From Candidatus Thorarchaeota archaeon (GTDB lineage Archaea; Asgardarchaeota; Thorarchaeia; Thorarchaeales; Thorarchaeaceae), in NCBI GenBank assembly GCA_029858305.1, contig JAOUFI010000003.1:1-64000 (forward strand): a DNA stretch of 64,000 nucleotides, in the 5' to 3' direction. Below the pieces are notes generated by a model. That model saw nothing but the letters and a program-made list of their open reading frames with translations. It did no database searches and was not told the DNA's origin. Position numbers and translations under genes: made by a program. Of this stretch, positions 1 through 37,988 are shown piece by piece (position 1 is the first letter of the stretch; every line of letters begins with the position of its first letter).

Positions 1-378
1 GAAGAATCCTAGCTCTGCATTGAACTGACCCCACCAAAATTGGATACTGTGGAGACGAGACATTTCCATCATGATGGTTCTCATGATTTTAGCACGCTCT
101 GGTACCTCGAGTTCAGCTATTTTCTCAACTGCAGCGACATAGGGATATTCAGCTAAAAACGCCTCGAGCATGCACATCCGTTCAAGTACAAGTGCTCCCT
201 GCCTGAAGTTCTTGTATTCTAGAACCTTCTCAGCAGAACGATGGAAGTACCCAGCATTCGGATCACATTCAACTACATAGTCACCAACCAGCGTCAGTTT
301 TGTTGCCCATCCATGTGCGCTGACATGCTGTGGTCCGAACCAGATTTCCATTGCTTCATCAAGTATGTCAGGACTCAC
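1..378 (-). CDS. nuoD: Complex I/MBS-like catalytic subunit D (NuoD/MbxL family), N-terminal part; runs off window start
   Basis: Not in the ORF track. Manual translation from GTG at 378, overlapping the nuoC stop: MSPDILDEAMEIWFGPQHVSAHGW...NAGYFHRSAEKVLEY...LERMCMLEAF...EVPERAKIMRTIMMEMSRLHS. The GPQH, G-x-x-HR-x-x-EK and VPERA motifs are typical of NuoD. Confidence 0.9.
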   Translation of the reverse strand, partial: MSPDILDEAMEIWFGPQHVSAHGWATKLTLVGDYVVECDPNAGYFHRSAEKVLEYKNFRQGALVLERMCMLEAFLAEYPYVAAVEKIAELEVPERAKIMRTIMMEMSRLHSIQFWWGQFNAELGFF

Positions 379-902
379 TCGCTTTCGCCTCCTGTCTTTG
401 GTCTCGCTTTTGGTGGAGTGATACCTGCTTCATCCAGCCTGCTTTGGTCAGTCTGGAATCTTTTGCGGAGAGGAAACACACCTGCAAGCTCATCTGGGAG
501 AAGCAATAATCGAGGGTCGGGATGATTCTTGAAGTCGATTCCAAACATCTCACGAGTTTCTCGTTCATGCCATTCAAAACCTGGAAAGATGTCACAAGTA
601 CTATCAATCTCAGGTCGCTCTCCTTCCAGAGAAACTCTCAACTGCAGTAACATTCGATTGGAGTGAGACCAAAAGATGTAGATTAGTTCGTATTTGTCAT
701 TTTCAAGATCGATACCAAAGATTGACTCGGGCAAAGCGTCATGAACATTCTCATCAATCATGGTCACGATATCACGAATTATGTTGGAAGGCACTGCAAG
801 CTCGATCTCATTCGCTCCCAAAGGTCTTGATGCAACCTCAGGATGCTTATTGATGATCTGTCTTGCGAGAGTTGAAGCTGTGATGCTGGTTGTTTCTGAC
901 AA
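375..902 (-). CDS. nuoC: NADH-quinone oxidoreductase subunit C-like
   Basis: C-terminal motif WHERETREMFGIDFKNHPDPRLLLLP...FPLRK. Start placed at TTG 902, just after the nuoK stop; the ORF track extends it to 950. Confidence 0.9.
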   Translation of the reverse strand: MSETTSITASTLARQIINKHPEVASRPLGANEIELAVPSNIIRDIVTMIDENVHDALPESIFGIDLENDKYELIYIFWSHSNRMLLQLRVSLEGERPEIDSTCDIFPGFEWHERETREMFGIDFKNHPDPRLLLLPDELAGVFPLRKRFQTDQSRLDEAGITPPKARPKTGGESE

Positions 903-903
903 T

Positions 904-1215
904 TTATTGACCCTCCATCTCCACTGATGTACCGAGGTCAACTGAGCCATATCGGCGGTTGTACATCAACATCAGGACCATTGCTAGAGCAGTATGTGCT
1001 GCAGCAACAGAGATTACAAGGATGATAAGTCCCTGACCAGTGAATGAAAACGCGGGATTAAACAGAGCAATAGCAACAATTGCAATCATGACTCCATTAC
1101 CCATTATTTCAGCTCCAATCAGGATTCTGATGAGGTTTCTTTTCACCATCATCCCATATCCACCTAAACCAATTAGCATGAACGCTAGTACTAGATACCA
1201 AGAAAGAGGAACCAT
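904..1215 (-). CDS. nuoK: NADH-quinone oxidoreductase subunit K-like
   Basis: 103 aa, 3 TM helices, KRNLIRILIGAEIM motif. Confidence 0.88.
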   Translation of the reverse strand: MVPLSWYLVLAFMLIGLGGYGMMVKRNLIRILIGAEIMGNGVMIAIVAIALFNPAFSFTGQGLIILVISVAAAHTALAMVLMLMYNRRYGSVDLGTSVEMEGQ

Positions 1216-1862
1216 TATTCATCAACCTCCTTCGGTTCAGGGACAGACTGCCCATCTTCAGCGCTTTGCAAGTCATCAATTAATACTGGTTTAGCTTCTA
1301 CTCCGAACTCTCCTGTGATGGCACCGAGCTGCTCGGCTTTGTCCATTCTCAACAGCGATATAGCACCAACTAATGATGTAATCATAATCAATGCAATCAT
1401 CTGCACATAGATGCCATTCTCAAACCATAGCCACTGTGCAAGACCATTCAAATCTTGAGAGATACTGACAAAGGCCTCATTGAAGGATTCTGCCCAAGGA
1501 AAGAGAACTGCAAGAAATCCGGTCATCACGGTTACTACGACAGCAATAACAAGGCTGATCTGACGAGCTCTGGGTGTGGCGAACTTTTCAAGAGTTGAGT
1601 CTTGTGCTCTTGGTAGTAGTAGAACTGCAAAGATAATCAGAGTACTGATGCCTCCAGTATACACTGCGATTTGCATACCTGCAATGAAAGGTGCTTCAAG
1701 AAGGAGAAAGAATCCTGCCACAAATGATGCCATAAAACCAAAGAAAAATGCGGCGTAAACAATCTCCTTGTGCTCTAGAGCAAGATATGCGAGCACTAGC
1801 ACAATGCCTGCCAAGAGTAGGAACTCTATCTGTTCAAAGAGTGCTGGATCAAATCCTTGCAT
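1215..1862 (-). CDS. nuoJ: NADH-quinone oxidoreductase subunit J-like
   Basis: 5 TM helices, LEAPFIAGMQIAVYTGGI motif, adjacent to nuoK. Confidence 0.88.
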   Translation of the reverse strand: MQGFDPALFEQIEFLLLAGIVLVLAYLALEHKEIVYAAFFFGFMASFVAGFFLLLEAPFIAGMQIAVYTGGISTLIIFAVLLLPRAQDSTLEKFATPRARQISLVIAVVVTVMTGFLAVLFPWAESFNEAFVSISQDLNGLAQWLWFENGIYVQMIALIMITSLVGAISLLRMDKAEQLGAITGEFGVEAKPVLIDDLQSAEDGQSVPEPKEVDE

Positions 1863-1864
1863 GA

Positions 1865-2332
1865 TTAATGACCTCCTGTAGGATATTGTTCTTTTTCTCG
1901 TTCAGCTTTAGCTCTCCTGTATACATCTAGAGTTTCTTTTCCATCAAGGAATGAGCGTGGAATCATTTTCATGACAAAACCAACTCCACCCATTACTATG
2001 AGAATAAACACAACAACCTGCCAAACAACCTCATACTTGGTTGCATTAGCCCACAAAAGGGTAGAAGAGGATAGCAGCCAAAGGAACGCTCCCATTACGT
2101 CAATGACGACAAACAGTACGGTGTAAACGAAATAATTGTACGGATACGATATGCGTGCAGGACCTACTGGTTCCTCACCACATTCGTATGTTGAAGTCTT
2201 CTCGGAGTTTTGAAGCACATGCGGTCTCAACACCCATGAGGCTAGTAGCATTATAATGACAAGAGCCATCGCAAGTAGCGCCCAAATTATAACCGGAATG
2301 AAATCTAGAAACAATCTACTAGTTTGCATCAT
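1865..2332 (-). CDS. nuoA: NADH-quinone oxidoreductase subunit A-like
   Basis: KTSTYECGEEP loop and 3 TM helices. Confidence 0.9.
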   Translation of the reverse strand: MMQTSRLFLDFIPVIIWALLAMALVIIMLLASWVLRPHVLQNSEKTSTYECGEEPVGPARISYPYNYFVYTVLFVVIDVMGAFLWLLSSSTLLWANATKYEVVWQVVVFILIVMGGVGFVMKMIPRSFLDGKETLDVYRRAKAEREKEQYPTGGH

Positions 2333-3060: not shown

Positions 3061-3603
3061 CTATTCGTTCGAAGACTCAGATGGAGTATCAGCGGATTCA
3101 CTGGACTCCTCAGATTTTACCTCGGCTTCAGGCGCAGCTTCCACAATTGGCTCAGGCTCGGGCTCAGGCTCAGGACCATAGTGTAGCTTACTAGTATCCA
3201 AGATACCGGGTGAGTAGCTCTCTTCACTAGTATGCATTATTGCAAAGCCTGCAGCAGTAAGGATTGATCCTCCAAGACCCCATGCAGATAGATAGAGTGT
3301 GGTTCCAGCTGCTGGAAGAGCTGTCACAAACTGGTCAATGAAGACGACGAAGAAAAAGCCAGCCAGAACAGATAGGGACATCATTAGGTTTTTTCCTTTT
3401 CCTTTCTCGGGTCTGAAGTACCCAATCAATAGGAAGACCATAAGAATGGAAACGCCACCCAGAAGAGTGAAGGCACTTCCAATTACAATTGCTGAAGCTG
3501 GCATCATGAACCCGAGATATACAAAGTTGAAGATGAATGATGTCAGAATAATGAGACCGAGCCAAAGCAGACAATATGGATCACTATCTTGCCGGATTGC
3601 CAT
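3061..3603 (-). CDS. Hypothetical 4-TM membrane protein with Pro/Glu-rich acidic tail
   Basis: Start overlaps the stop of the 3603..5543 gene; four hydrophobic segments; PEPEPEPEP tail. Confidence 0.7.
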   Translation of the reverse strand: MAIRQDSDPYCLLWLGLIILTSFIFNFVYLGFMMPASAIVIGSAFTLLGGVSILMVFLLIGYFRPEKGKGKNLMMSLSVLAGFFFVVFIDQFVTALPAAGTTLYLSAWGLGGSILTAAGFAIMHTSEESYSPGILDTSKLHYGPEPEPEPEPIVEAAPEAEVKSEESSESADTPSESSNE

Positions 3604-5543
3604 TACTGCATCATCCCCATCGCATCTTGATTCTCATATCTTTGTTGCCAGTGAGTCGTCCCAGCTCGTATCTTGTTCTGCAAAATCAGGTGTGCTCGGA
3701 TAAAGTCCGCGGGTTTGGGAGGACATCCGGGGAGATAGACATCGACTGGTACAATTTTGTCAGGAGGTGTTGCCAAGCTGTATCCTTCCCAGAAGAGCCC
3801 CCCGGAGGCAACACATTGACCGAAGGCAATGACATACTTGGGCTCTGGCATCTGTTCATAGATTCTCCTGAGTCGTGGTGCCATCTTCTTTGTGAGAGAG
3901 CCTGAGATCCATAGGACATCAGTCTGTCTTGGGCCAAACAGAGGTAGCATTCCGAACCTCTCAAAGTCCCATCGAGGGGCGATTCCTGCGGCACCATCCA
4001 CCATGCAGCATCCTATTCCATACTGCATTGGCCAAGGACTATGTGCCCTTCCCCATCTAAGCACCCATTTCAGCGGGGGTACATTCTGCAGCCATTTCAA
4101 GAGGATTGGCGCAATTCGGCCCCAACCATTCCTGAATAGGTCGAAGAAGACCCACATGAAGTACTTGCCGATTCTTAATATGAAAGGAAGCCAGTAAGCA
4201 AATATCTTTCCAGGATTCGAAATCTCCTTCTTATCCCATTCTAGCTTCGCAGCTCGAATTCGAGATAAACGCTGCTTTCCAAAGTACTGATTTGCGTAGT
4301 TTGCAAACCAGATTCCTGTTGAGTGCACATGGCCCCCGTGACGTTGTGCAATTTTGAATATGACAAAGCTCTGTGACCAGGAGAGCATGAAGAAGTGCCG
4401 TCGCTCATCCTCCAGAAAGTATCCCATCATCGTCACGCCAGTCTTCGAGTTAACATAGCCATCAATTCCAGCTCTTGCAGAGGCTTGTTCAAATTGAAAG
4501 TCGTCAAGGATTGCGGCAAGGTTCTCTAGAGGTGCAAATGCCTGACCGACAACTAGTGTTGGACCTTTCTTTTTGATCTTCATGGGATAGTATCGCTCAT
4601 GCCATTCATGATCTGCAACTTCATCATCGTAAACGCGTCCACGATACATCTCAGTGACTTCGCGTACGACTCTCAGTCCCTCTTCAATCTCTTCCTCATT
4701 ACCTTCATATGCAACCATCAATGAACAATGGTGAGCAGGAATCGGGAATGGCTTCTTGCCCTCCCAGATAGCCTTCTTGAGGTCTGTGTATTTTGATTCT
4801 TCGAATTTTATCGTGTAGGGAATTGGTCCATCTTCAAGGATCTTCTCAATCGCAAGGACCATCTGATAATTCTCTTCAAAGCTGGAAACTATGACTTTCA
4901 TCGGCGTTAGAGTTTTGATCTTAATAGTAGCCTTAGTGATTATACCCAAAATTCCCTCAGTATCGCAAAAGAGGTCGAGATCTTTCGTCTTGACTATTTT
5001 TCCAGTTGGCAAAACAACTTCTAATTTAACGACGTTCTTATTGATGTTCCCGTATTTCAAAGAACCAATGCCATCGCCACCTTGGGCAATCCAACCACCC
5101 ACAGTTGCCGATACACCAGATGAGGGATAACATCGTACATCAAGACCTTGCCTATTCAACTCGAATTGAAGATTAGCCCATGATATCCCGGGCTCAACTG
5201 TGACAGTCAAATTCTCACTATCAACTTCGAGTATCTTATTCATACTGCGCAAATCAACGATGATTCCACCCTTGCGCGGAATGGCACCACCATAACCAGA
5301 TGTCCCAGCTGCTCGGGGAACAAGAGGAATCTTGTACTTGCGCGCAATTTCGTAGAGTGTCTGTATCTCCTCAGGAGTCAGAGGCTGTGCTATGGCATCA
5401 GCCTTCGTGTTCATGAGCCAACCAACCTGCTTTGGGAGAGAACCAACATCTTGTCCAAACAAAATCAGTTCATGCTTCGCAGTAATCAGGCGGTCTCCAA
5501 AAACCTTCTCGAGTTCATTTTGTGCTATTTGCTTAAGGACCAT
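3603..5543 (-). CDS. Fusion: FAD-linked oxidase (GlcD/Dld-type) + NuoB Fe-S subunit
   Basis: N-terminal PRAAGTSGYGG, PSSGVSATVGGWIA and EGILGIITKA (FAD_binding_4 type). C-terminal GCCMVD, FERFG...PRQTD, SGSLTKKMAP, GQCVASGG and VDVYLPGCPP (NuoB). Confidence 0.92.
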   Translation of the reverse strand: MVLKQIAQNELEKVFGDRLITAKHELILFGQDVGSLPKQVGWLMNTKADAIAQPLTPEEIQTLYEIARKYKIPLVPRAAGTSGYGGAIPRKGGIIVDLRSMNKILEVDSENLTVTVEPGISWANLQFELNRQGLDVRCYPSSGVSATVGGWIAQGGDGIGSLKYGNINKNVVKLEVVLPTGKIVKTKDLDLFCDTEGILGIITKATIKIKTLTPMKVIVSSFEENYQMVLAIEKILEDGPIPYTIKFEESKYTDLKKAIWEGKKPFPIPAHHCSLMVAYEGNEEEIEEGLRVVREVTEMYRGRVYDDEVADHEWHERYYPMKIKKKGPTLVVGQAFAPLENLAAILDDFQFEQASARAGIDGYVNSKTGVTMMGYFLEDERRHFFMLSWSQSFVIFKIAQRHGGHVHSTGIWFANYANQYFGKQRLSRIRAAKLEWDKKEISNPGKIFAYWLPFILRIGKYFMWVFFDLFRNGWGRIAPILLKWLQNVPPLKWVLRWGRAHSPWPMQYGIGCCMVDGAAGIAPRWDFERFGMLPLFGPRQTDVLWISGSLTKKMAPRLRRIYEQMPEPKYVIAFGQCVASGGLFWEGYSLATPPDKIVPVDVYLPGCPPKPADFIRAHLILQNKIRAGTTHWQQRYENQDAMGMMQ

Positions 5544-6119
5544 GAGTCCACTCTCCAGCTCATGAACAGAGCCGCTAGTATTCTGAGGCTGGGAAAGTAG
5601 TAAGATAAAAACCTAACGAGGCAGTGAAAATACTTCTGAGATTTCATTATGTTGAAAGAACAGCACTTTATCTTCGAAATATCTGAGAGCTCTATGGAGT
5701 TATTTACAAAATGAGATGATGTATAGAATGTCATGAAGATGATAAGCTACACTCATACTCACTGTTGAGATGTTGTGGTTACGTCTTGAAACTTACTAAA
5801 TTTTTCAAAATATCTTTAAAAAGGCCTCAAAAGTGGTCAACCCCCTAGTCCTGCATTTGTTACACCAGTTACACATGTTGTAGGTACATGGGCAGTCATC
5901 ATAGTTGTTGGTATTCTAATTTCAGAGATTCTTGTCAGGAAAGGAAAATGGTAACACTGTTCAACCGATATCAAAAATGGTTTTAGTCTGTTATAGCATG
6001 TAGCTATATTAATTTCAGAGTATAGCAATTCATTACTTACTGAGATATAAGCAGTGTATTTTCGTTTCATTTTGTAATTTAGATGATTCAATATTCGAGT
6101 GCGATCTGGTGATTGAAAT

Positions 6120-9100
6120 ATGAAGACCTCTAATAAACTAACAATTACCATTGTTCTTTCTGTTTTCATCATTTTAATTGCTGGAGCCTACTCAGCGGCA
6201 GGCCAACCGAGTCGAACCAGTGAATGTGCACCATGTCATACCCTCGACCTGGTTCATATGACGATTTCATCGAACGCAACCGGAACAGTCGATGCCAAAG
6301 TGGGAAACCAATTCTCGTTAATCATTAATGCGGCATCACTTGATACAAATCCACAAACAGGAAGTATGGCTGTTAAAGTCTATAGTGGATGGGCTGATAA
6401 CAGTCAGTTCTCATTCACAGACCCGTTGCTAGTAATCGATAATGGAGCTGGAGATTCAAACTCGAATAGCGTTCAGATAACTACCACGTTCACATTTACG
6501 CCCCTGGCAGTTGGTACATGGACACTTAGAATCTGGACAGCCGCGTCCCAAGGTGATTCAGGAAGAATATCTCAAAAGCTTGATGTAACAGTATCGGTCA
6601 CACTCTCAGATTCTACTCCACCAACAATCGACAGTCCAATAGACATGATAATCGATGAAGGAGATAATACAAAGAACATTACCTGGAGCCCGTCTGATGC
6701 AAATCCAAGCAGCTATCAAGTTTTTGATGATTCTGTGTCATGGCAGAGTGGGCCCTGGGATGGATCGACTATAACTGTACAGCTTGGTTCACTCGGATTA
6801 GGGACCCACAACATCACTCTTGCTGTGTGGGATGCAGCTGGAAACTCGGCATCAGATCAAGTAGATGTGACAGTTCTCGATGGAACGTCACCTAGCATTA
6901 ACAGTCCAGCAAATGTGACTTACAGCGAGGGTTCCTCCGGATACTCAATAACATGGGATCCAACTGATACCCATCCATCAAGTTACGTAATCTATCGAGA
7001 TGGAGTGTCTGTCAAATCAGGGACTTGGAATGCTAGTATCGAAACAATTTCTGTTTCAGTTGATAGCCTCGCAGTTGGCACGTACAACTACACAATTGTT
7101 GTATCAGACGTAGGAACGAACACCATTGCTGACACAGTGTATGTCATAGTATATGATGGGACATTCCCCACAATCGATAATCCTGCAGATGTAACCTATG
7201 ATGAAGGTGATACAGGATACAGCATCACTTGGAACCCCGCCGACTTGAATCCGGTTAGTTATATCATTTACAAAGACGCAGTACCAGTGAAATCAGGTTC
7301 CTGGAACTCGAGTGCAGAATCCATCAGCATCATAGTTGATGGCCTTGCTGTTGGAAACTACAGTTATGTATTGGAGGTGACTGATATCGGATCTCTTACT
7401 GCGTCGGACCTAGTTTTGGTCATTGTTTCTGATGGGACTCTACCGACAATTAATAGTCCAATCGATATAACATTAAACGAAGGAGTAATAGGATACTCTA
7501 TTACTTGGAACCCGACAGATCTGAATCCACAAAACTACACAATCTACAGAGATGGAGTTCCTGTAAAATCAGGCCTTTGGAACTCTAGTGGTGAGTCAAT
7601 CTCAATTTCAGTTGATGGTCTCGCAATGGGTTCATATACATACCTGATTATTGTTGAGGATGTTGGACATAATCCAGCAACAGATTCAGTTCTTGTCACT
7701 GTAGTTGACGCAACAGATCCTACAATTGATACTCCAATTGACCAAAATGTAGTTGAGGGATCAAGTGGTAATCAAATCACCTGGAGTCCTTATGACCTTC
7801 ACCCATCATCTTATCAAATCTATCGTGAACATGTACTTGTCAAATCTGGAACATGGAATAGCAGTTCAGAAACAATCACATTCTCGGTTGATGGACTCAC
7901 ATTGGGAGTCTACAATGTTACAATAGTTGTATTTGACACAACATCAAGAAAAGCTATTGATACTGTTTTTATCACGGTCTATGATGGAACACCACCAATT
8001 GTTGATCATCCAGCTGACATTGACTATCCAGATGGTGACATAGGATATTCAATCACCTGGTCCCCTACAGACCTGCATCCAGTAAGCTATCAGATTTTGC
8101 GAGAGGGCGTGCAGGTGAAATCGGGTATGTGGAACTCTTCGAGTGAAACAATATTCATATCTGTTGACTGGCTTTCTATTGGATCTTACAACTACACGAT
8201 TGTTCTCGTTGACATCGGTGGCAACATAGTACTTGATGAAGTCATTGTTACGGTGTATAACGCAGACTTACCAACTATTAATCATCCCACCAACCAGACC
8301 ATTTCTGAAGGAGCTGCTGGTCTTTTAGTGATTTGGAAGCCATTAGACCTCAATCCCTCTTCATATGCAATATACAAAGACGGAGTTCTCGTCAAGTCTG
8401 GAGCGTGGAACTCAAGTGCTGAAACAATCAGCATTTCACTCGATGGATTATCTCTGGGCGAGTATAACTTTACTGCCTTGGTTACTGACCTAGACAGCAA
8501 TACAGCGAGTGATACAGTGTGGGTCACTGTCGTTGATGGTACACCTCCTGTTCTTAATCATCCAAACGACATCACGTACGATGAAGGAAGTCCTGGAGGA
8601 ACCCTAACTTGGATTCCAACAGACTTGCATCCTGTGAGTTATACGATCTACTTCGAAGGGTCTCCAGTGAAATCCGGTCTCTGGAACTCTAGTGGTGAAT
8701 CTATCTCGATATCAGTCGATGGACACCTAGTTGGAGGTTATAATTACACAATAAGAGTCGTGGATGTTGATGGAAACATTGACACTGATACAGTGTTCGT
8801 CTATGTGATGGATGGCACACTTCCAACAATCGATACTCCAAGTGATATTAATTATAATGAGGGTGAAGCAGGAGGAACAATCACTTGGGATCCTGCAGAC
8901 TCATATCCAGCGAGCTATGAAATCTTTAGAAATGATGTTCTTGTGAAATCTGGCTTATGGAACCTAACATCAGAAACTATCTCAATATCTGTGACTGGAC
9001 TATCTGTTGGATCTTACAATTTCACAATATTAGTATACGACGTGGGAAGTAATTCTGTTCTAGACACGGTATGGGTCACAGTATCCGATGCAACACTTCC

Positions 9101-10364
9101 AACGATTGATACACCAGTCGATAGACAAATCGACGAAGGTCAGACTGGAGAAATAATTACATGGGATCCATCTGATTTGAATCCGATAAGTTACGAAATC
9201 TACAGAAATCAAGTCATTTTCAGAAACGGTTTATGGAATTCAACTTCGGAAATGATCTCAGTTTCACTTGATGGACTTGGTCTAGGTGTTCACAACTTCA
9301 CATTGGTTGTATTCGACATCGGCTTGAACTCTGCGAATGATACTGTGCTGGTAACTGTCATTGATGGTACATCACCAACTATTGATAGTCCATCCGATGT
9401 CTTCTATGCTGAAGGAGTGATAGGTTATTCTATAACATGGAATCCATCAGACCTTCACCCAGTAAGTTATGAAATACTCAGAGAAGGGGTCCAACTAAAG
9501 ACGGGTCCATGGAACTCATCATCTGAATCCATCACTGTCAATGTGGATAGCCTGACCCTTGGATCATACAACTTCACAATCTATGTCACTGATGTTGGTG
9601 GAAACATTGCAAGCGACACCGTATTTGTTATCGTTTCTGACGGTAATGCACCGACAATTGATAGCCCTCCAGATGTGACATACGATGAAGGAGATACTGG
9701 CTTCTCTATTCAATGGAATCCAGCTGATGCACATCCATCAGGGTATGAGATATACAGAGAGGATGTCCTGATATTCTCTGGACTATGGAACTCATCTTCG
9801 GAAACAATCACAGTATCAGTTGATAGCCATCAAGTAGGAACATACAACTATACGATACGTGTCTTTGATATTGGCGCTAGCAGTGTATCTGATACGGTGA
9901 TGGTCATTGTTCAAGACGGGACATTACCCATGATCGATAGTCCAGCTGATATTGTCTACAATCAAGGCGATACTGGAAACTCAATTACTTGGAATCCCTC
10001 AGATTTGCATCCGATGAGCTATGAGATATTTCGAGATGGAGTGTCGATTAAATCAGGATTGTGGAATTCAAGCAGTGAATCAATTGTTATTATAGTGGAC
10101 GGGCTCACTCTTGGCGTTCATAATTATACGCTTGTTGTTATCGATATTGGTACTAATTCAGCACTTGATCAAGTGAATGTACTAGTCCAAGCCTCAACAT
10201 CTCCAACGACACCCACAACAAGTACACAGACAACAACTCCCGAGAATCCCAATGTACCGCAAATACCCTTGGAGCCAATTTTGATGATACTTGTCACCTG
10301 GATTGGCGTTGGTGTACTTGCGTTTGTCATTGCCGATTTTCTAGTTAGACGATATAGAGGATAG
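6120..10364 (+). CDS. Large surface protein: signal peptide, mono-heme c (CxxCH) beta-domain, 13 Ig-like repeats, C-terminal TM anchor
   Basis: ECAPCH near the N-terminus; repeats of ~92 aa; Thr/Pro-rich linker; TM helix followed by RRYRG. Confidence 0.9.
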   Translation: MKTSNKLTITIVLSVFIILIAGAYSAAGQPSRTSECAPCHTLDLVHMTISSNATGTVDAKVGNQFSLIINAASLDTNPQTGSMAVKVYSGWADNSQFSFTDPLLVIDNGAGDSNSNSVQITTTFTFTPLAVGTWTLRIWTAASQGDSGRISQKLDVTVSVTLSDSTPPTIDSPIDMIIDEGDNTKNITWSPSDANPSSYQVFDDSVSWQSGPWDGSTITVQLGSLGLGTHNITLAVWDAAGNSASDQVDVTVLDGTSPSINSPANVTYSEGSSGYSITWDPTDTHPSSYVIYRDGVSVKSGTWNASIETISVSVDSLAVGTYNYTIVVSDVGTNTIADTVYVIVYDGTFPTIDNPADVTYDEGDTGYSITWNPADLNPVSYIIYKDAVPVKSGSWNSSAESISIIVDGLAVGNYSYVLEVTDIGSLTASDLVLVIVSDGTLPTINSPIDITLNEGVIGYSITWNPTDLNPQNYTIYRDGVPVKSGLWNSSGESISISVDGLAMGSYTYLIIVEDVGHNPATDSVLVTVVDATDPTIDTPIDQNVVEGSSGNQITWSPYDLHPSSYQIYREHVLVKSGTWNSSSETITFSVDGLTLGVYNVTIVVFDTTSRKAIDTVFITVYDGTPPIVDHPADIDYPDGDIGYSITWSPTDLHPVSYQILREGVQVKSGMWNSSSETIFISVDWLSIGSYNYTIVLVDIGGNIVLDEVIVTVYNADLPTINHPTNQTISEGAAGLLVIWKPLDLNPSSYAIYKDGVLVKSGAWNSSAETISISLDGLSLGEYNFTALVTDLDSNTASDTVWVTVVDGTPPVLNHPNDITYDEGSPGGTLTWIPTDLHPVSYTIYFEGSPVKSGLWNSSGESISISVDGHLVGGYNYTIRVVDVDGNIDTDTVFVYVMDGTLPTIDTPSDINYNEGEAGGTITWDPADSYPASYEIFRNDVLVKSGLWNLTSETISISVTGLSVGSYNFTILVYDVGSNSVLDTVWVTVSDATLPTIDTPVDRQIDEGQTGEIITWDPSDLNPISYEIYRNQVIFRNGLWNSTSEMISVSLDGLGLGVHNFTLVVFDIGLNSANDTVLVTVIDGTSPTIDSPSDVFYAEGVIGYSITWNPSDLHPVSYEILREGVQLKTGPWNSSSESITVNVDSLTLGSYNFTIYVTDVGGNIASDTVFVIVSDGNAPTIDSPPDVTYDEGDTGFSIQWNPADAHPSGYEIYREDVLIFSGLWNSSSETITVSVDSHQVGTYNYTIRVFDIGASSVSDTVMVIVQDGTLPMIDSPADIVYNQGDTGNSITWNPSDLHPMSYEIFRDGVSIKSGLWNSSSESIVIIVDGLTLGVHNYTLVVIDIGTNSALDQVNVLVQASTSPTTPTTSTQTTTPENPNVPQIPLEPILMILVTWIGVGVLAFVIADFLVRRYRG
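6609..10190 (+). repeat. 13 diverged tandem intragenic repeats (~276 bp / ~92 aa, Ig-like beta-sandwich)
   Basis: Consensus DGTxPTIDxPxDxxYxEGxxGxSITWxPxDLxPxSYxIYRDGVxVKSGxWNSSxExISISVDGLxxGxYNYTIxVxDxGxNxAxDTVxVxV. Unit starts at 6879 and 7155 are 276 nt apart. Confidence 0.9.
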
Positions 10365-10457: not shown

Positions 10458-11684
10458 ATGGATTTTCCAGCTCTGAAAGAACATGAACTCCAAGATTACG
10501 CCTTTACTTGTGCCCAATGCAGTTTTTGTCAGGTAGGTCATGGTGCGTGTCCAACCTACAAGGTAAAACGACGAGATACATATTCAGGAAAGGGCAAGAT
10601 GCTATTGACCCGTGCTTTGATTCAAGGTCGGCTAAAACCATCTGAAGGACTCGAAGGTCTTAGAGATGGAATCTTTGGTTGCACACTCTGTGGAGGCTGC
10701 GAGGAAGTCTGCCAAGTAGATATCCCCTTTGTTAAAATCTACCAAGTAATGCGCTCTGAATTCAAAAGGCGCAACATGTGGCCAGAACAGCTCCAGATGG
10801 CTAAAGACACTGTCTTGAAGAGCTTCAATATTCAAGGTCAAGCACAAATGGATAGAATCGAGGGCTGGTCGTACTGGACTCCAAATGAGGATGAATTACT
10901 GGATAGACAGGGAACCAAAGCAAAGACTGCATTCTTCTTCGGATGTGCATCATCATTCCGAGGTGTTTCCATTCAGGCTACAATTGCTACAACACTAATC
11001 TTCGATAAAATTCAAGAAGAGTATACCGTGCTGGGAGAAGAAGAGTACTGCTGCGGTGCTCCTCTCATAATGACAGGAGACTTCGAAGGGGCGAGAGTTC
11101 TTGCTGAACACAATATTCAGAAGTACAGAGAGCTTGGTGTTGAGAGGATAGTGACCAACTGCCCAGGTTGCTATAAAATGTGGGCTCATGAATATCATGA
11201 GTTCTTGGGCATAGATCATGGTTTTGAAATAGTCTATGGTTATCAGTATCTTGCTGATCTCCTTGATAAAGGCAAATTGACAGGCTTCAATACGCCACTC
11301 GATGTCACAGTGACCTACCATGATGGTTGCGATGCTGGCCGAAATGCCGGATTCTATGAAGAACCTAGAAAGGTACTTGAGTATCTTCCAGGAGTTACTT
11401 TTGAAGAACTACCCCATAATAAGGCCAATTGCTATTGTTGTGGCTCTGGTGGAGTCCTAAGAGCAATCGATGCAGACTTTGCAAATCAAATCAATAGACT
11501 CAAAGTAGAAGATATCGAGGCAACAAATGCAAGTATTGTGTCGTCTGGATGTCCCTCCTGTGTTGACTTTATGCATGATCAACTTCCTCAAGCTGGTTCT
11601 AATAAGACCGTGAAGGACCTAGTTGTTCTTACTGCACAGGCGCTCGGTCTCTCTTGGGATGGACTTGACGAGATTTATGGTTGA
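10458..11684 (+). CDS. Fe-S oxidoreductase, GlcF/GlpC/HdrD family (2x[4Fe-4S] + 2 CCG domains)
   Basis: CAQCSFC...CP, CTLCGGCEEVC, YCCGAP, NCPGC, YHDGC, YCCGSGG, GCPSC. Confidence 0.9.
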   Translation: MDFPALKEHELQDYAFTCAQCSFCQVGHGACPTYKVKRRDTYSGKGKMLLTRALIQGRLKPSEGLEGLRDGIFGCTLCGGCEEVCQVDIPFVKIYQVMRSEFKRRNMWPEQLQMAKDTVLKSFNIQGQAQMDRIEGWSYWTPNEDELLDRQGTKAKTAFFFGCASSFRGVSIQATIATTLIFDKIQEEYTVLGEEEYCCGAPLIMTGDFEGARVLAEHNIQKYRELGVERIVTNCPGCYKMWAHEYHEFLGIDHGFEIVYGYQYLADLLDKGKLTGFNTPLDVTVTYHDGCDAGRNAGFYEEPRKVLEYLPGVTFEELPHNKANCYCCGSGGVLRAIDADFANQINRLKVEDIEATNASIVSSGCPSCVDFMHDQLPQAGSNKTVKDLVVLTAQALGLSWDGLDEIYG

Positions 11685-11739: not shown

Positions 11740-13002
11740 ATGAACAGGAAGTCGACGGTTCAAAGTAGGTATCAAAGGAAATGGATCTATGAGGAGATTG
11801 TAGACCGAATACCGCCATTTAGATGGATCCCACGGACATATGATGTCATCGCACAATTGCTTCTTGTAGAAACTGTCGGTGTCTTTGCATTCATTTACTT
11901 TCAGATGCCGTATGAAGCCGCAGTATTTGGTTCGCTAGCAATAATCTATACTGTAGTTTGGTCTTCTGGATGTCTCTATATCGTTCCATGGCTAAGAAGA
12001 CTTCGTGATCCAACGAATGAGATTGAATTTGAAGTCCTTAGAGATTACAAGAGTCGTATTCTTTTGGATCGAAGGCTAGAACTCATTGGGGGCATAATTT
12101 GCTTTGGCGCAGTCATGTCGTATCTTTGGATTGATACTGATTATCTCAGATATTTTCTAGGAAACGGATTCGGAAATCCACTATTGATTATATTGATTAT
12201 AGTGTTAGCTTGGGATATTAGTTACCGTCTTGGACTATCATTAGTGACCACGTTCTTCGCAGCGATAAGATCCATATCATTAAGCCAAGCGGCTAGAAAA
12301 CGAAGGGGTCTAGCTTATACTGCTTATTCAGAGGTTAGAACACTCAAATACCTCGATTTGATCAATCTGTATTGGGGAATCAGCGCAGTTCTACTCTTGC
12401 CCTTGACTCTACGATCCTATTTCTTATTGCTGGGGCTTGCAGGATTTCTTGCAGGCATAATTGGACTTTCTACCTTGAGTCTGCTAGCAATGGAAACCGT
12501 CCCTTGGTTTCCTCCCGATGTTGAGAGTATTTTGCATAACGAAGGATTCGCGTATGTAAGTGTGTGTTCAAAGAAACAACCGCATGTAACACCTGTAATC
12601 TTCGTATATGATGGAAAATACCTGTATTTTGCCATATCAGTTGCCTCGGCTAAATACAGAATAATAAAGAAGAATCCCAAGATTGCAGTCTTGGTTGATA
12701 TGCGCGATAGTAAGTTTCCGATGAAGAATAGGGCTGTGCTTCTGAGAGGAAAAGGGATGATTCTTGGAGACCTATCGATTATGGGATTTTTCAAGCTTTT
12801 CTTGCACGGCCTTTGGCTAATTCGAGTGAGAAACATGTTTGCTAAGAAATATCCTATGTACATGAAATTTTATGAAGATCAGGCTCAGGAACTTCCACCT
12901 GCTTGGCGAAACAAACCGTTCCTCTCCAGGGTAATCGTACGTCTAGAGCCTGAAAAGATAACATACTGGCGTGAGGCCAGACCAACAACCCTACGAGCGT
13001 GA
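11740..13002 (+). CDS. Multi-TM membrane protein fused to a flavin/F420-binding split-barrel (PNPOx-like) domain
   Basis: ~6 TM helices in the N-terminal part; C-terminal QPHVTPVIFVYDG...SAKYRIIKKNPKIAVLVD...AVLLRGK. Confidence 0.75.
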   Translation: MNRKSTVQSRYQRKWIYEEIVDRIPPFRWIPRTYDVIAQLLLVETVGVFAFIYFQMPYEAAVFGSLAIIYTVVWSSGCLYIVPWLRRLRDPTNEIEFEVLRDYKSRILLDRRLELIGGIICFGAVMSYLWIDTDYLRYFLGNGFGNPLLIILIIVLAWDISYRLGLSLVTTFFAAIRSISLSQAARKRRGLAYTAYSEVRTLKYLDLINLYWGISAVLLLPLTLRSYFLLLGLAGFLAGIIGLSTLSLLAMETVPWFPPDVESILHNEGFAYVSVCSKKQPHVTPVIFVYDGKYLYFAISVASAKYRIIKKNPKIAVLVDMRDSKFPMKNRAVLLRGKGMILGDLSIMGFFKLFLHGLWLIRVRNMFAKKYPMYMKFYEDQAQELPPAWRNKPFLSRVIVRLEPEKITYWREARPTTLRA

Positions 13003-13006
13003 AACC

Positions 13007-13492
13007 ATGACACTAAGATTGCCTCATTATGATAGCACCAAGAAGACAACTAAGATTCCAGATGATGCCTTGAACATCCTTCGAGATGGATTCTTTGCGT
13101 ATTTAGGTACGGCTGACCTAGTCTGCGAACCTCATGTAACGGCTATGTTCTATATTTGGGATGATGATTCTAAGACAATCCATCTTATTACTTCAAAAGA
13201 AAGTAAAAAGGTGCTAAATATCAGACGAAATACAAGAGTGAGTGTTACTATCGATCAAAGAGACCCTAAATCACCAGCTCGTAACTCAGGTGTAATGGTA
13301 AAGGGAAGAGCGCTCCTTGTAGAGATGGAGCTTATTGATGATGAACTGACAGTGAAATATCTTGAGAAGTATGTTGAATTTCTAGGAACTGGATATCCTT
13401 TGGGGCTCAGGATTGCGATTCGAGTAGTTCCACAGACAATCTCCTATTGGAAGGGAACTAATTTCTACCGATGGAAGAATCGGAGCTCCTAA
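13007..13492 (+). CDS. Pyridoxamine 5'-phosphate oxidase-like split-barrel protein
   Basis: FAYLGT...PHVTAMFY...SKKVLNIRRNTRVSVTID...GVMVKGRA; paralogous to the C-terminal domain of the upstream gene. ATG at 13007 preferred as start. Confidence 0.8.
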   Translation: MTLRLPHYDSTKKTTKIPDDALNILRDGFFAYLGTADLVCEPHVTAMFYIWDDDSKTIHLITSKESKKVLNIRRNTRVSVTIDQRDPKSPARNSGVMVKGRALLVEMELIDDELTVKYLEKYVEFLGTGYPLGLRIAIRVVPQTISYWKGTNFYRWKNRSS

Positions 13493-13496
13493 ATTC

Positions 13497-14600
13497 TCAA
13501 TTGCTTGAAGATGCAGCACTTGCTGCTTTTCTTGCCTGGCGCTCTGTTTGATAATAAAAGGCAAGAGATATTGCAAGACACAAAACACTCAAAATAACAA
13601 CGAACCATGGAGGCGTTGATAGACCAATTAACAGGTACGACAGAGAGAGGAAGAGACCTGTAAACAAGTGATTTGCTACAGTTGAGGCGTAGGCGGGAAT
13701 CAATGGTTGCGAGTATTCATAGTATTTCAATGCATACTTGCATCCAAGCGCTGCAGCAGGCACAGTTGCTAGTCCTAGAAATGTATACCAGTCTGTAAGA
13801 TTGAGAATGATTGGAATTAATATTGACAAATATAGTGAAGCCATCAGAACAACATAGCCCTTAGCCGCTCGTTCGCGTCCAAGCCGCACGACCACTGTTA
13901 GCTTTCCAACTGCTTTATCGGCTTCATAGTCAGGAAACTCATTGATGTATAGAACCGCTGTAATTAGTATGGCAATTGGAATTGAAGGAAAAACAGCCTC
14001 CCAAGCAAGAACTTGTGTTTGAACGAAATAAGCACCAAGAGTCATGAGAACACCAAAGTTGAGACCAATAAAGATCTCTCCAATCCCTCTGTTCACCAAT
14101 CTCAGGGGTGGAGCAGTATAGAAGAAGCCAGAACCTACACCAATGATTCCTAGAATCAGAACTTCAATGCCCCTTGTGTAAGCAAGATATAGACCAATCC
14201 CACCTCCAATTGAGAAGAACACGATTGATTCTGCAAAGACCTCACGGGGAGACATCCAACCTCTCTGTATCATCCTGCTCCCCCCAGTGAATGGACGAAC
14301 ATACTCCACGTTGATATCGTCCGTCCCACTCTTGTGGTCGAAGTAGTCATTGGCCACATTAGATCCAATGTGCACGCAAATTCCAGCTATGAGTGTCAGC
14401 AGGAAAACATCCAGAAGGAACACTCCTGTCGAAGCCCATCCAACACAGGTTCCTAGAATTACTGGAACAATCGCTCCGGTTAGAAAAGGAGCACGCATCT
14501 CAGCCATCCAGATTCGTATTCTCGAAGGTTTTTCTACGCTCACGACTATCACAACATACAGGATTGAAACCATTGCACATTGCACAAAAGACTTACTCAA
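13497..14600 (-). CDS. menA: 1,4-dihydroxy-2-naphthoate polyprenyltransferase (UbiA family)
   Basis: RAPFL, NVANDYFDHKSGTD, FTGGSRMIQ, YTAPP...GIGE, INEFPDYEADKAVGKLT. Confidence 0.88.
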   Translation of the reverse strand: MSKSFVQCAMVSILYVVIVVSVEKPSRIRIWMAEMRAPFLTGAIVPVILGTCVGWASTGVFLLDVFLLTLIAGICVHIGSNVANDYFDHKSGTDDINVEYVRPFTGGSRMIQRGWMSPREVFAESIVFFSIGGGIGLYLAYTRGIEVLILGIIGVGSGFFYTAPPLRLVNRGIGEIFIGLNFGVLMTLGAYFVQTQVLAWEAVFPSIPIAILITAVLYINEFPDYEADKAVGKLTVVVRLGRERAAKGYVVLMASLYLSILIPIILNLTDWYTFLGLATVPAAALGCKYALKYYEYSQPLIPAYASTVANHLFTGLFLSLSYLLIGLSTPPWFVVILSVLCLAISLAFYYQTERQARKAASAASSSN

Positions 14601-14682
14601 TGGATTCAGAAAATAAGTATCTATAAGACAACTGCTTTAAGGCACAAACGAATTAACATGAGAGATTCTAGGAGCACTTCTA

Positions 14683-15723
14683 ATGACAGAACGACCAACT
14701 GTTAATCTTGATGCCGACAACCAAATAGAAGAAAGCACAAGTCCAATATATTCATCTGACCTGTTAGAGAATGAAAAAATACACACTAGAATAAATCTCA
14801 TAAATGAGGAGATTAAACGTTGTCTTCTGGATGAGGATGGTGAACCAGCACTCCTCTATGAAACAGCACGACATTTAATTCTTGCAGGTGGCAAGAGACT
14901 GAGGTCATTATTATTGGTACTCTCCTGTGAAGCTGTAGGCGGAACAGTGATTGATGCTCTACCATTTGCTGTTGCTACTGAGTTCGTGCAAACTGCTAGT
15001 CTTATCCATGATGATGTCGTTGATGAGGATAATATGCGTCGGGGAGTAGAAACCACTCATAAGAAATTTGGTGGGAAGATGGCAATTATCGCTGGAGACT
15101 TATTGGTCGCATTAGCGATCAAATTGATAGGAGAGAGATCAACTCCTCAGCTTCTTACATACGTTGCGGCTGGAGGCATTAGAATGTGTGAAGGTGAGGC
15201 CGCTGATCTTCTTATGAGTCAAAAGAAGGACCATTCCTACACGACAAAAGCTGCACTTGAAATCATAAGAATGAAAACAGTCTCGTTTATGGTTTCTGCT
15301 GCAAAGGTAGGAGCTATGTTAGGTCACGCGAATGAAAAACAAATGGAAGCGTTGGTCAGGTATGCAGAGATGTTGGGATATTCATTTCAAATCCGTGATG
15401 ATATTCTAGACATAGTTGCGACGCAGAATGGAACTGGTAAGACAGTATTATCCGATTTAAAAGGAAGCAGAAGCAATTTCGTTCTAGCTCACGCGATTGA
15501 AAACTGCTCACCTGATCAGAGAAAAGATTTCGCGAAGAAACTAAGCGATGGTGATGTTGATTTTATTCTTGAACGAATAAAGGAAGGCAGGTCTGTTGAA
15601 TATTCAACTGAGATCGCAAGGGAATACTTAGAATCAGCAAAACGTGCAATTCAAGGACTTAATTTTGCCAATGAAGAATTATTGACGCTTCTTGCAGACT
15701 TTGCAATGAACCGCCTCTACTAA
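14683..15723 (+). CDS. Polyprenyl diphosphate synthase (GGPP synthase/IspA family)
   Basis: GGKRLR; FARM SLIHDDVVDEDNMRRG; SARM FQIRDDILD. Confidence 0.92.
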   Translation: MTERPTVNLDADNQIEESTSPIYSSDLLENEKIHTRINLINEEIKRCLLDEDGEPALLYETARHLILAGGKRLRSLLLVLSCEAVGGTVIDALPFAVATEFVQTASLIHDDVVDEDNMRRGVETTHKKFGGKMAIIAGDLLVALAIKLIGERSTPQLLTYVAAGGIRMCEGEAADLLMSQKKDHSYTTKAALEIIRMKTVSFMVSAAKVGAMLGHANEKQMEALVRYAEMLGYSFQIRDDILDIVATQNGTGKTVLSDLKGSRSNFVLAHAIENCSPDQRKDFAKKLSDGDVDFILERIKEGRSVEYSTEIAREYLESAKRAIQGLNFANEELLTLLADFAMNRLY

Positions 15724-15734
15724 TTTTGTAGGAA

Positions 15735-16925
15735 CTAAAGGAACCAATTCAAAGCTTTAACAAGCGTTTTTGATGCGAGAGATATTGGAAGAGGAAGTCG
15801 ACATCGAATAAGCGGTTCGAGAAATCTAACTCCAGCAAGATTCATACAGATATCAGTTAATGTATCCGAGGGCATGACTGTATCAGCGACTCTAAGAACT
15901 TGAAGTGCAGTTTCCAGCTCAAGACCATATTCAGATCTCCACTTTCGTTCATAAAGGGACAAAGAAGCATTTTTTGTCAAATGGTTTACAACGTTCTCTC
16001 CGGCTATCTGACCACCGCATAATGCAGTCGGAATTCCACCTCCATTCGAAGCCATCACATGACCAGCTGCATCTCCGACTAGTATCACATTGTTTGACCA
16101 AGTTGTTTTAAGTGGGCCACCAACAGGGATAATCGCGCCTACTCTTTGCAGTATCTTTGCGTTTTTCGTTTTTTGAGCCAAAGTATTGAATGCAAACCGT
16201 TCAATATACCTCTTCAGTGGAGTCATATCGCCTCCGATGCTTCGTCGCATCCCGAAACCAATATTGGCTATGCCCTCACCCTTAGGTATGACCCATGCAT
16301 ATCCTCCTGGTGCAATCGAACTGCCAAAATACATCTCAACAATAGTTGGATCAATATCAACATCGCTCATGACATATTGTAGTGCTGGGCTTAGATCTGA
16401 TTCAGGCTGGATGAATCTAGGACCAAGGGAACGAGCCACAACTGACTTTGACCCATCAGCTCCAATAACTAACCTTGAGTTTATTGTTTGTACTGAATTC
16501 TTTGTTTTGACTTTCAATTCGTTCGTTATGGAGCGATTAATTACCGTAGAATCTAACTGAATCTCAGCACCAACATTTTCAGCTGAATCTGCAAGATATT
16601 GATCATATCGAGATCTATCAACAATGTTCGCTTCGAAAGGAAACTCGAAAGATTTTCCGTTTGGAGAAATCAGTCTTATGACTTGGGTCTGGTTTGTTAT
16701 AAACTCCGCTGGTACATTAACAGCTTTGGACATCCTCGTCGAGTTAGGAAAAAGTCTTCGTGCCTCTGATGGTGTAGGAATGAGCTCTCCACATTGCACT
16801 GGCGCACCAACTTTGCGGCGACGATCAAGAACGAGAGTATGCAGATCATTTCTTGCTGTCACTTCTGCTGCAGATGTCCCAGCTGGTCCAGCGCCAATCA
16901 CTGCGACATCATATATGATCTTCAT
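15735..16925 (-). CDS. Geranylgeranyl reductase family FAD oxidoreductase
   Basis: GAGPAG, VQCGE, DRSRYDQ, IGADG, APGGYAWVIPKG, GDAAG...NGGGI. Confidence 0.88.
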   Translation of the reverse strand: MKIIYDVAVIGAGPAGTSAAEVTARNDLHTLVLDRRRKVGAPVQCGELIPTPSEARRLFPNSTRMSKAVNVPAEFITNQTQVIRLISPNGKSFEFPFEANIVDRSRYDQYLADSAENVGAEIQLDSTVINRSITNELKVKTKNSVQTINSRLVIGADGSKSVVARSLGPRFIQPESDLSPALQYVMSDVDIDPTIVEMYFGSSIAPGGYAWVIPKGEGIANIGFGMRRSIGGDMTPLKRYIERFAFNTLAQKTKNAKILQRVGAIIPVGGPLKTTWSNNVILVGDAAGHVMASNGGGIPTALCGGQIAGENVVNHLTKNASLSLYERKWRSEYGLELETALQVLRVADTVMPSDTLTDICMNLAGVRFLEPLIRCRLPLPISLASKTLVKALNWFL

Positions 16926-37986: not shown

Positions 37987-37988
37987 AA

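Follow-up and report, generated by a model that had tools for sequence, protein, structure and literature searches.

Within the 64,000-nucleotide (nt) stretch analysed here as a whole (the window; positions 1 to 64,000, forward strand, of contig JAOUFI010000003.1 from the Candidatus Thorarchaeota archaeon assembly GCA_029858305.1), a gene at 6120..10364 is predicted to encode a surface protein that carries a single c-type heme in an N-terminal head domain, held off the membrane by a stalk of thirteen tandem immunoglobulin (Ig)-like domains and a C-terminal membrane anchor. By sequence comparison, this is a real finding and not a chance one: the head represents a new, unannotated family of putative heme-c domains, the stalk recurs across the Asgard archaea, and its thirteen-domain length is conserved. 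The protein would belong to the known kind of surface-displayed c-type cytochromes; it most likely bears its one heme at the far end of thirteen Ig-like domains, an arrangement not described before for holding a redox centre at a distance from the membrane. We infer the biochemical function, and the coupling mechanism considered below is speculative. The features of the stalk protein are the following:

6120..10364, plus strand: stalk gene, one uninterrupted open reading frame (ORF) of 1414 amino acids (aa)
6120..6203, plus strand, directly preceding position 6204: signal peptide, aa 1-28, hydrophobic N-terminus with predicted cleavage between AAG and QP
6204..6614, plus strand: head domain, aa 29-165 (137 aa), an N-terminal CAPCH peptide and then a beta-sandwich at aa 47-161
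6225-6239, plus strand: CAPCH, aa 36-40, about 8 residues past the predicted cleavage site
6615..10196, plus strand: thirteen Ig-like repeats, aa 166-1359, repeat 1 of 90 aa and repeats 2-13 of 92 aa each
10197..10277, plus strand: Thr/Pro-rich linker, aa 1360-1386, assigned from sequence
10278..10364, plus strand: C-terminal transmembrane helix (aa 1387-1405), basic tail RRYRG and stop

A Shine-Dalgarno-like GGTGA motif lies a few bases 5' of the ATG of the stalk gene, and the N-terminus of the protein agrees with those of its orthologues in the alignment. The signal-peptide cleavage site was placed by the -3/-1 rule, and the pattern surrounding it, A-[YF]-[ST]-A-x-[GA] followed by X-P-x-x-T-x-E-C, recurs among the orthologues. 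There are exactly two Cys in the 1414 aa, both of them within CAPCH. At the other end, the transmembrane helix has a hydropathy of 2.74 over 19 aa, the orthologues end alike, and a comparable T-rich linker stands ahead of the anchor in the short (~200-aa) members of the head family. No PGF-type sorting motif was visible by eye in the C-terminal 60 aa, no NCBIfam sorting-signal model matched the protein, and no peroxidase-type or sensor output domain was found in it by Pfam and NCBIfam scans. Sequence and models thus describe a predicted topology of N-terminal head, Ig-like array and C-terminal transmembrane anchor in a single membrane; this layout (head with CAPCH, 13 repeats of ~92 aa, anchor) had been given by an initial annotation made from the letters of the window, and ORF, repeat and hydropathy analysis all confirm it. 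A 111-aa ORF at 5837..6172 on the minus strand overlaps the start of the stalk gene on the opposite strand; it is without family match and is probably no gene.

The extent of the head family was determined by a HMMER scan of aa 1-165 against 1.84 billion cluster representatives, which gave 47 proteins at E <= 1e-3, and by word-indexed searches, which added 15 long-protein orthologues and 68 short-paralogue matches (including P0052, encoded in the window). All source-named matches are 'hypothetical protein' entries from metagenome-assembled genomes (MAGs) of Thorarchaeota, Sifarchaeia or Promethearchaeota, and the head accordingly appears, among named matches, as an unannotated family confined to Thorarchaeota and related Asgard MAGs. 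It matched no Pfam or NCBIfam family, cytochrome families included, and sequence and profile searches of the PDB with the head returned nothing significant, the best cytochrome chain (E 0.28) being aligned only over the signal-peptide/motif stretch. In the literature covered, which left subscription journals outside, neither the head family nor c-type cytochromes of Thorarchaeota nor any heme borne by a stalk of Ig-like domains was found described; the FESNov paper (PMC10849945) touches on Thorarchaeia and on ccm genes, in connection with other matters. A tblastn search with the head gave weak partial matches in two bacterial MAG loci, L003 and L004 (Burkholderiales, Chloroflexota), with 29% identity (aa 47-124) and 46% identity (aa 62-97); mere Ig-like similarity is their probable cause.

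The evidence for the heme comes from the conservation of the CAPCH site. C-X(2-5)-CH was present in the first 100 residues of 142 of the 145 proteins matching a hidden Markov model (HMM) of the head, the 3 misses being N-truncated fragments that start inside the domain; the HMM having been built from the same sequences, this proportion describes the collected set and is no independent test. Across 128 aligned heads, C36, C39, H40, F65, N94 and F97 are invariant (128/128), and D107, D112 and G132 are kept in 127. The spacing between the two Cys residues, by contrast, drifts: (i) among the 47 representatives, 44 carry the motif, as CX2 (n = 32), CX3 (n = 2), CX4 (n = 8) or CX5 (n = 2), (ii) the 15 long orthologues comprise 13 CX2 and 2 CX4 forms, and (iii) the short-paralogue matches, 67 of 68 with the motif, are mostly CX4 (n = 56), with 10 CX2 and 1 CX5. 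No further Cys occurs in the mature chains of any of the 15 long orthologues or of the 67 short-paralogue matches. Since the C...CH residues are invariant while the Cys spacing drifts, and since the mature chains hold no other Cys, a heme-c site is favoured over a disulfide or a metal site of fixed geometry. The protein also has the export signal expected of a c-type cytochrome, namely an N-terminal hydrophobic segment with an AxG/AxA-type cleavage pattern. The initial annotation had proposed a heme at CAPCH and had made this depend on conservation of CxxCH among orthologues; C-X(2-5)-CH is kept in 15 of 15. Given the invariance of the motif across the family, its position as the sole Cys pair of an exported mature protein and the full archaeal-type set of cytochrome c maturation (Ccm) genes in the window, CAPCH is very likely a covalent heme-c site. 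If the heme is real, the head would be a new heme-c domain type, in which a heme peptide at the N-terminus is carried by an Ig-like sandwich and a distal ligand is not apparent.

An AlphaFold2 model of the head had a mean predicted local distance difference test score (pLDDT) of 87.2, with a confident sandwich at aa 47-161. The top Atlas lead for the head was a 'hypothetical' archaeal cluster (score 0.91). A complex prediction with two mature heads and two hemes (score 0.00, mark 0.42) weighs neither way on dimerisation.

The stalk was examined in the same manner. Its 13 repeats are mutually 37-63% identical (mean 54%). In an AlphaFold2 model of aa 28-440, computed from an alignment of 17 sequences (mean pLDDT 88), the repeats form all-beta domains with pLDDT above 90, and a Foldseek search with the repeat model returned tandem Ig-like arrays, e.g. 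the RTX-adhesin extender 6xi1, titin I65-I70 and the neck of a grappling-hook protein, together with macroglobulin and PapD-like domains. At the profile level, the repeat qualifies as a member of the Pfam family K319L-like_PKD (PF22352; 103.6 bits against a cut-off of 27), and the HYR model stays below its cut-off (15.9 against 21.7 bits). The suspected richness of the repeats in N-x-S/T sequons proved real, there being 30 sequons against 17.4 +/- 3.5 in 2000 shuffles (shuffle maximum 30); two sequon positions are fixed in the repeat, WNSS at position 49 and YN[YF]T at position 66/68, each present in 12 of the 13 repeats. Judging from the models, the stalk is probably extended, with the heme displayed at its distal end. 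Tandem Ig arrays span ~4 nm per domain, and thirteen domains would put the heme roughly 50 nm out if the array is indeed extended.

The comparison of repeat number among orthologues that the initial annotation had called for showed 13 repeats in eight of the 15, 12 in two, 11 in two and 7 in two, the remaining one being a fragment. When the eight 13-repeat orthologues were compared repeat by repeat with the stalk protein, repeat k found its best match in repeat k, at 65-90% identity against ~60% for the next best, the exceptions being repeat 13 of P0062 and of P0063, for which repeat 9 was best by 1-2 points. Because the repeats are thus positionally orthologous one to one, in proteins whose heads are only 57-81% identical, the 13-repeat array predates the divergence of these lineages and has been maintained without homogenisation. 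The 7-repeat forms are internal deletions that retain repeats 1, 2, 6, 7, 8, 9 and 13 or repeats 1, 5, 6, 7, 8, 9 and 13. Tandem Repeats Finder returned 0 rows for the DNA of the stalk gene because the repeats are too diverged, and this divergence also makes it unlikely that the shorter forms (of 7, 11 and 12 repeats) arose through assembly collapse. Over the whole head family, the 125 complete proteins distribute, in counts biased by the choice of queries, as 0 repeats (n = 88), 1 (n = 4), 2 (n = 2), 4 (n = 1), 6 (n = 8), 7 (n = 3), 8 (n = 1), 11 (n = 7), 12 (n = 1) and 13 (n = 10); the commonest classes are 0, 6, 11 and 13, and a 7-repeat class is also seen.

The same repeat is found far beyond the heme proteins. 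A search with repeats 2-4 matched 209 longer proteins at E <= 1e-10, and among the 120 of these matches that were listed, the names span Thor-, Sif-, Kari-/Heimdall-, Hod-, Loki- and Odinarchaeota. All of 100 further repeat proteins (P0137-P0236) contain at least 3 repeats, with a copy range of 3-17. When other Asgard repeat proteins were scanned with Pfam, in 10 of 10 the functional domain preceded the array and the C-terminus was hydrophobic, the cargo domains being SBP_bac_5, Peptidase_S8, NosD/beta-helix, Rhodanese, LVIVD and DUF2341. The array is thus a general, pan-Asgard head-stalk-anchor display module, and the heme head is one cargo among several. The solute-binding proteins (SBP_bac_5) are mounted on 4-6 such repeats and would have to reach a membrane permease, which indirectly supports the view that heads on this stalk may return to the membrane. 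The heme had initially been pictured as reaching beyond an S-layer. This is doubtful, as Ca. Lokiarchaeum ossiferum has, according to an excerpt of PMC9834061, no ordered S-layer and instead bears complex surface proteins that protrude from its single membrane. The stalked proteins may themselves constitute the envelope, and the 92-aa repeat stalk is a concrete candidate for the 'complex surface proteins' seen in Lokiarchaeum by cryo-electron tomography.

The genes of the window that bear on the function of the stalk protein are the following (FAD, flavin adenine dinucleotide; FMN, flavin mononucleotide):

3603..5543, minus strand: GlcD-like FAD dehydrogenase (FAD_binding_4 + FAD-oxidase_C) fused to NuoB, divergent from the stalk gene
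10458..11684, plus strand: HdrD/GlcF/TmcB-like CCG + 2x[4Fe-4S] protein (Pfam CCG, Fer4_8), no transmembrane helix
11740..13002, plus strand: DUF7530 protein of ~5-6 transmembrane helices fused to a PNPOx-like flavin-binding domain
12971..13492, plus strand: PNPOx/PPOX-class flavin (F420/FMN-type) protein, overlapping the DUF7530 fusion gene
17049..19121, minus strand: CcmF/NrfE-family heme lyase
21474..22847, minus strand: six-CxxCH cytochrome P0004 with C-terminal transmembrane anchor
23208..24404, plus strand: head paralogue P0002, with signal peptide, CSTCH, head, one extra Ig-like domain and ~4 transmembrane helices
31614..32210, plus strand: head paralogue P0052, 198 aa, with signal peptide, CGTTGCH (CX4CH), head, T-rich linker and transmembrane helix
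32225..35655, plus strand: after P0052, the four-transmembrane protein P0053, a CCG protein and a GlcD-like FAD protein with C-terminal transmembrane helices
35734..38375, plus strand: ccmA, ccmB, ccmC and ccmE

The two immediate neighbours are those noted at the outset, i.e. the CCG protein (10458..11684, plus strand) downstream, after a gap of 93 nt, and the divergent FAD-NuoB fusion (3603..5543, minus strand). The accompanying statement that CAPCH is the only heme motif holds for the stalk protein and fails for the window, in which the six-CxxCH protein and the CSTCH and CGTTGCH head paralogues are also encoded. The P0002 head is 29% identical to that of the stalk protein (E 7e-12), its transmembrane region carries His344, His347 and His365, and the genes that come next encode a GlcD-like FAD protein and a CCG protein. 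P0053 has a weak DUF2231 match (E 7e-4), and no similarity was found between it and the C-terminal membrane domain of P0002. All three head genes of the window adjoin HdrD/GlcF-like CCG proteins plus membrane or flavin proteins. Two Thorarchaeota MAG loci with short head forms, L001 and L002, were also retrieved, and the order short head, four-transmembrane protein, CCG protein and GlcD recurs in L002. The CCG proteins of the window match the TfrB, LdhH, GlpC, GlcF, TmcB, HmcF and DsrK models, all far below the equivalog cut-offs.

As for maturation, the CcmE protein (37884..38375, plus strand) ends with CPSKY, with a Cys where bacterial CcmE has its heme-binding His; we take this to be the archaeal CxxxY variant. 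A regular-expression search for the WWD motif in CcmF and CcmC gave no match, and the Pfam/NCBIfam assignments of these proteins stand. According to an excerpt of PMC9084895, CcmABCEF suffices for cytochrome c maturation in Methanosarcina. The true start of ccmE is probably downstream of the listed TTG; a Met within the frame, at about residue 36, stands ahead of the transmembrane helix.

Our best reading overall, on which we would put even odds, is that the stalk protein is a surface c-type monoheme cytochrome which exchanges electrons with partners outside the cell and reaches membrane cytochromes by motion of the stalk. That this electron-transfer role is tied to the CCG/GlcD modules is a proposal of equally balanced probability. 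In such a scheme, after Sec export and signal-peptide cleavage, CcmABCE and CcmF of the window would link the heme covalently to Cys36 and Cys39, His40 serving as its proximal ligand, and the heme would sit on a short N-terminal peptide packed against the beta-sandwich. The C-terminal helix would anchor the protein, the thirteen presumably N-glycosylated Ig-like domains and the Thr/Pro linker separating head from anchor. Cytoplasmic GlcD-like 2-hydroxyacid dehydrogenases and HdrD/GlcF-like CCG proteins would feed membrane subunits, which in turn would pass electrons on to the cytochromes close to the membrane, namely P0002, the short head forms and the six-heme protein. With these the stalked head would swap electrons through motion and collision of the tethered head, and it would meet a syntrophic cell, a mineral, humics or a dissolved oxidant on the outside. 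The direction of electron flow is a guess made from the dehydrogenase annotations. Electron tunnelling fails beyond ~2 nm, and the earlier remark that a stalk of tens of nm is too long for it is physically sound; because the stalk cannot conduct, the heme must either act locally at the tip or meet its partners by movement. The collisional shuttle, as the coupling mechanism, is a tentative choice and less likely than not.

Several observations weigh against this reading, and they concern in turn the heme, the gene context and the stalk. The main weakness of a plain electron carrier, as far as the alignment can tell, is the absence of an obvious distal ligand: apart from H40, no His, Met, Lys or Tyr column reaches at least 40% in the 128 aligned heads, and for want of such a conserved column a six-coordinate electron-transfer heme has no evident sixth ligand. 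Heme attachment is itself predicted; the ~20-residue segment bearing the motif is modelled by AlphaFold2 as a low-confidence coil (pLDDT 59-68 in the head model, 36-68 across models), and Foldseek with the head found generic Ig-like, macroglobulin and PapD-like sandwiches (template modelling (TM) score <= 0.51) and no cytochrome in the top 50. To our knowledge, the CX5CH spacing (3 of the 142 motifs) is unfamiliar from characterised cytochromes. With regard to context, the short form in L001 has no redox neighbourhood, and the grouping of the stalk gene and the CCG gene into one operon is suggested by the 93-nt gap and the shared strand only. With regard to the stalk, in 7 of the 8 13-repeat orthologues the repeats are 76-82% identical on average, against 57-75% for the head, P0057 being the exception (head 81%, repeats 76%); because the repeats are conserved at least as well as the head, each with its own identity, the stalk seems to be no neutral spacer and to do more than hold the head at a distance. 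Finally, hemes held statically at heights of 0, ~1, 6, 11 and 13 domains would be much too distant from one another for tunnelling, so that the coupling step depends entirely on assumed flexibility.

The sixth position may be accounted for by a five-coordinate heme, by a backbone or N-terminal amine ligand, or by a ligand supplied in trans. An N-terminal amine ligand, as in cytochrome f, has a low probability: the predicted mature N-terminus is X-P-x-x-T-x-E-C in most long-protein orthologues, and among the orthologues of the short paralogue many have another residue in place of Pro2 and some, as a subgroup, contain 5 inserted residues, which speaks against it. Met47, beside His46, was considered as distal ligand and rejected, the position being Ile, Val or Leu in orthologues.

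Among the alternatives, a structural envelope protein is somewhat unlikely. The Ig-like domains would then build a glycosylated coat, lattice or sheath, and the heme, five-coordinate, would work locally at the outer face in a task other than conduction, binding a small ligand (O2, NO, sulfide or CO) or removing peroxide or another oxidant. An open coordination site fits the missing distal ligand, and repeats that are individually conserved, as much as or more than the head in 7 of 8 13-repeat orthologues, are what position-specific contacts predict. Archaeal S-layer glycoproteins have a signal peptide, Ig-like domains, N-glycosylation, a Thr-rich linker and a C-terminal anchor, and the stalk protein shows every item of this list, its signal peptide, many Ig-like domains, enriched sequons, Thr-rich region and transmembrane anchor making up the same architecture; it differs from haloarchaeal-type S-layer glycoproteins in that no PGF-CTERM motif is visible. 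Many protruding surface proteins in place of an ordered S-layer, as described for Ca. L. ossiferum in the excerpt of PMC9834061, would also suit an envelope role. However, the same repeats, in 3-17 copies, carry peptidases, solute-binding proteins and a rhodanese, which points to a display stalk and not to a lattice unit, and the 88 complete head proteins devoid of repeats indicate that the head works without a coat. Moreover, the head genes of the window and the short form in L002 adjoin CCG/GlcD redox genes, which argues for electron transfer, and the Pfam and NCBIfam scans revealed no output domain of peroxidase or sensor type.

Quite improbable, in our estimation, is a contact or adhesion device, in which the stalk would bring the head to a partner cell or mineral and the heme iron, completed by the partner or by another head, would serve binding or a direct cell-to-cell hand-over of electrons and not shuttling. 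The lack of a distal ligand conserved in cis would fit such a device, the head-stalk-anchor layout resembles that of RTX-adhesin extenders (Foldseek 6xi1, TM score 0.40), and cultured Asgard archaea are, in the excerpt of PMC9834061, syntrophs with extensive surface proteins. Against it stand the short family members, which are too short to reach a partner, and the fact that no partner was identified; in addition, the repeats of this protein, 54% identical on average and positionally conserved, are unlike the near-identical repeats of variable number that are usual in RTX-type extenders. That the protein is not a cytochrome is very improbable; in that case the head would be an ordinary Ig-like surface domain capped by its Cys pair, either as a disulfide or as a metal site of Cys2-His type (Zn, Cu or Fe). 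The heme site is predicted from sequence, and the generic beta-sandwich, the want of a significant cytochrome-family match and the missing distal ligand are compatible with this, but a disulfide needs no His and a metal site needs fixed geometry and usually a fourth ligand, whereas here all 128 aligned heads have the His directly behind the second Cys, with a Cys-Cys spacing of 2 to 5, and the genes around it include a complete Ccm set and further cytochromes.

Returning to the surface cytochrome, one head protein of the window has 0 repeats, another a single additional Ig-like domain and the third 13 repeats, and in three named genomes a form without repeats occurs alongside one with 6 or 7, as judged from the locus-tag prefixes (KGD60, RTV72 and ACFFCP) that the two forms share. 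An improbable but coherent extension is that Thorarchaeota genomes put the same monoheme head on stalks of differing length, as a 'redox brush' through which electrons from cytoplasmic 2-hydroxyacid oxidation would leave by collisions between tethered hemes, and which would serve a partner or mineral up to ~50 nm off with no need of a multiheme wire. Such exchange would be a bounded diffusion like that in redox polymers. Asgard archaea are pictured mainly as fermenters that pass hydrogen or formate to syntrophic partners. The window unites a full Ccm set, a nuo-like complex, prenyl/quinone-type biosynthesis genes, several GlcD/CCG modules and an exported monoheme family; if the heme is real and redox-active, Thorarchaeota would have a route for electrons out of the cell, and electrons could then be exchanged directly in their partnerships.

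The closest published architecture is that of the Ignicoccus hospitalis proteins Igni_0759 (also printed Igni_0579) and Igni_1052, predicted monoheme cytochromes c with homologues in Pyrolobus and Hyperthermus (Kletzin et al. 2015, PMC4429474, excerpt). Like the stalk protein, these are archaeal, carry CxxCH (their residues 28-32) just after the signal peptide, and have a beta-sandwich body, an uncertain distal ligand and, in some members, a C-terminal transmembrane helix; both cases are predictions only. As far as the excerpt describes them, and compared by description and not by sequence, they have no Ig-like stalk, and they were modelled on a reelin-N/spondin template, whereas the present head matches only generic Ig-like, macroglobulin and PapD-like folds. 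An Atlas link of the head to a Reeler-containing cluster scored 0.86, below the 0.9 line.

The gene context has its nearest parallel in the Tmc, Hmc and DsrMKJOP complexes of sulfate reducers, where an extracytoplasmic cytochrome c, a membrane subunit and a cytoplasmic HdrD-like CCG protein are encoded together. A set of cytochrome c, membrane and CCG genes is likewise found at all three head genes of the window and in L002. Unlike in those complexes, the cytochrome is here a monoheme protein of unrelated fold, GlcD-like flavoproteins are added, and the membrane proteins are DUF7530 or weakly DUF2231-like and not NarI-type. The scores with the TmcB, HmcF and DsrK equivalog models were 49-112 bits, against cut-offs of 400-750. 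By analogy, then, the modules of the window resemble the Tmc/Hmc/Dsr layout, with no part of them being a family member.

Three further systems share single aspects with the stalk protein. PgcA of Geobacter sulfurreducens reportedly has three heme domains on short Pro-Thr tethers and is released from the cell, unlike the present protein with its one heme, folded 13-domain glycoprotein stalk and membrane anchor. It is presented in an excerpt of PMC10570954 as 'hemes on a string', an extracellular cytochrome of separate heme-bearing domains. The likeness, drawn by analogy, would consist in single heme domains on non-conducting tethers, with transfer depending on domain motion. The RTX-adhesin extender 6xi1, an Aeromonas tetra-tandem repeat (TM score 0.40 in both directions), is similar in that a tandem Ig-like array holds a head off the cell; RTX adhesins differ in being bacterial, with an outer-membrane anchor and type I secretion, and their extender repeats are near-identical, unlike the 37-63% identical, positionally conserved repeats seen here. 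Anaerobic methanotrophic (ANME) archaea are said to possess multiheme cytochromes with S-layer domains, heme proteins fused to envelope domains that carry electrons across the envelope; their many hemes could form a wire, unlike the single heme of the stalk protein.

Further genes of the window touch on these subjects. The FAD-NuoB fusion heads a nuo-like row at 1..2332 on the minus strand (NuoA, J, K, C and a NiFe-hydrogenase/NuoD-like fragment), and the gene content points to a complex-I-like module that a 2-hydroxyacid dehydrogenase would feed directly. The DUF7530-PNPOx fusion is a possible membrane flavoprotein partner of the adjoining CCG protein. Genes for a UbiA prenyltransferase, a polyprenyl synthase and a geranylgeranyl-reductase-like protein (13497..16925) lie within the redox island and would fit the production of either a quinone-type membrane carrier or lipids. 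From 24394 to 35655 on the plus strand there is a run of pairs of GlcD-like FAD and HdrD/GlcF-like CCG proteins, plus an amine-oxidase-like flavoprotein; the GlcD-like proteins at 29741..31390 and 33934..35655 carry 2-3 C-terminal transmembrane helices, and the block from 27029 to 35655 is syntenic with the Thorarchaeota locus L002. Between the CcmF-type lyase and the six-heme cytochrome, P0003 (19143..21350, minus strand) is a 735-aa exported protein to which no family could be assigned; it matches epimerase/(alpha/alpha)6-like domains weakly, has Ig-like regions towards its C-terminus and ends in an extremely basic tail. A heliorhodopsin gene is present at 46872..47693 on the plus strand (Pfam E 4.8e-90).

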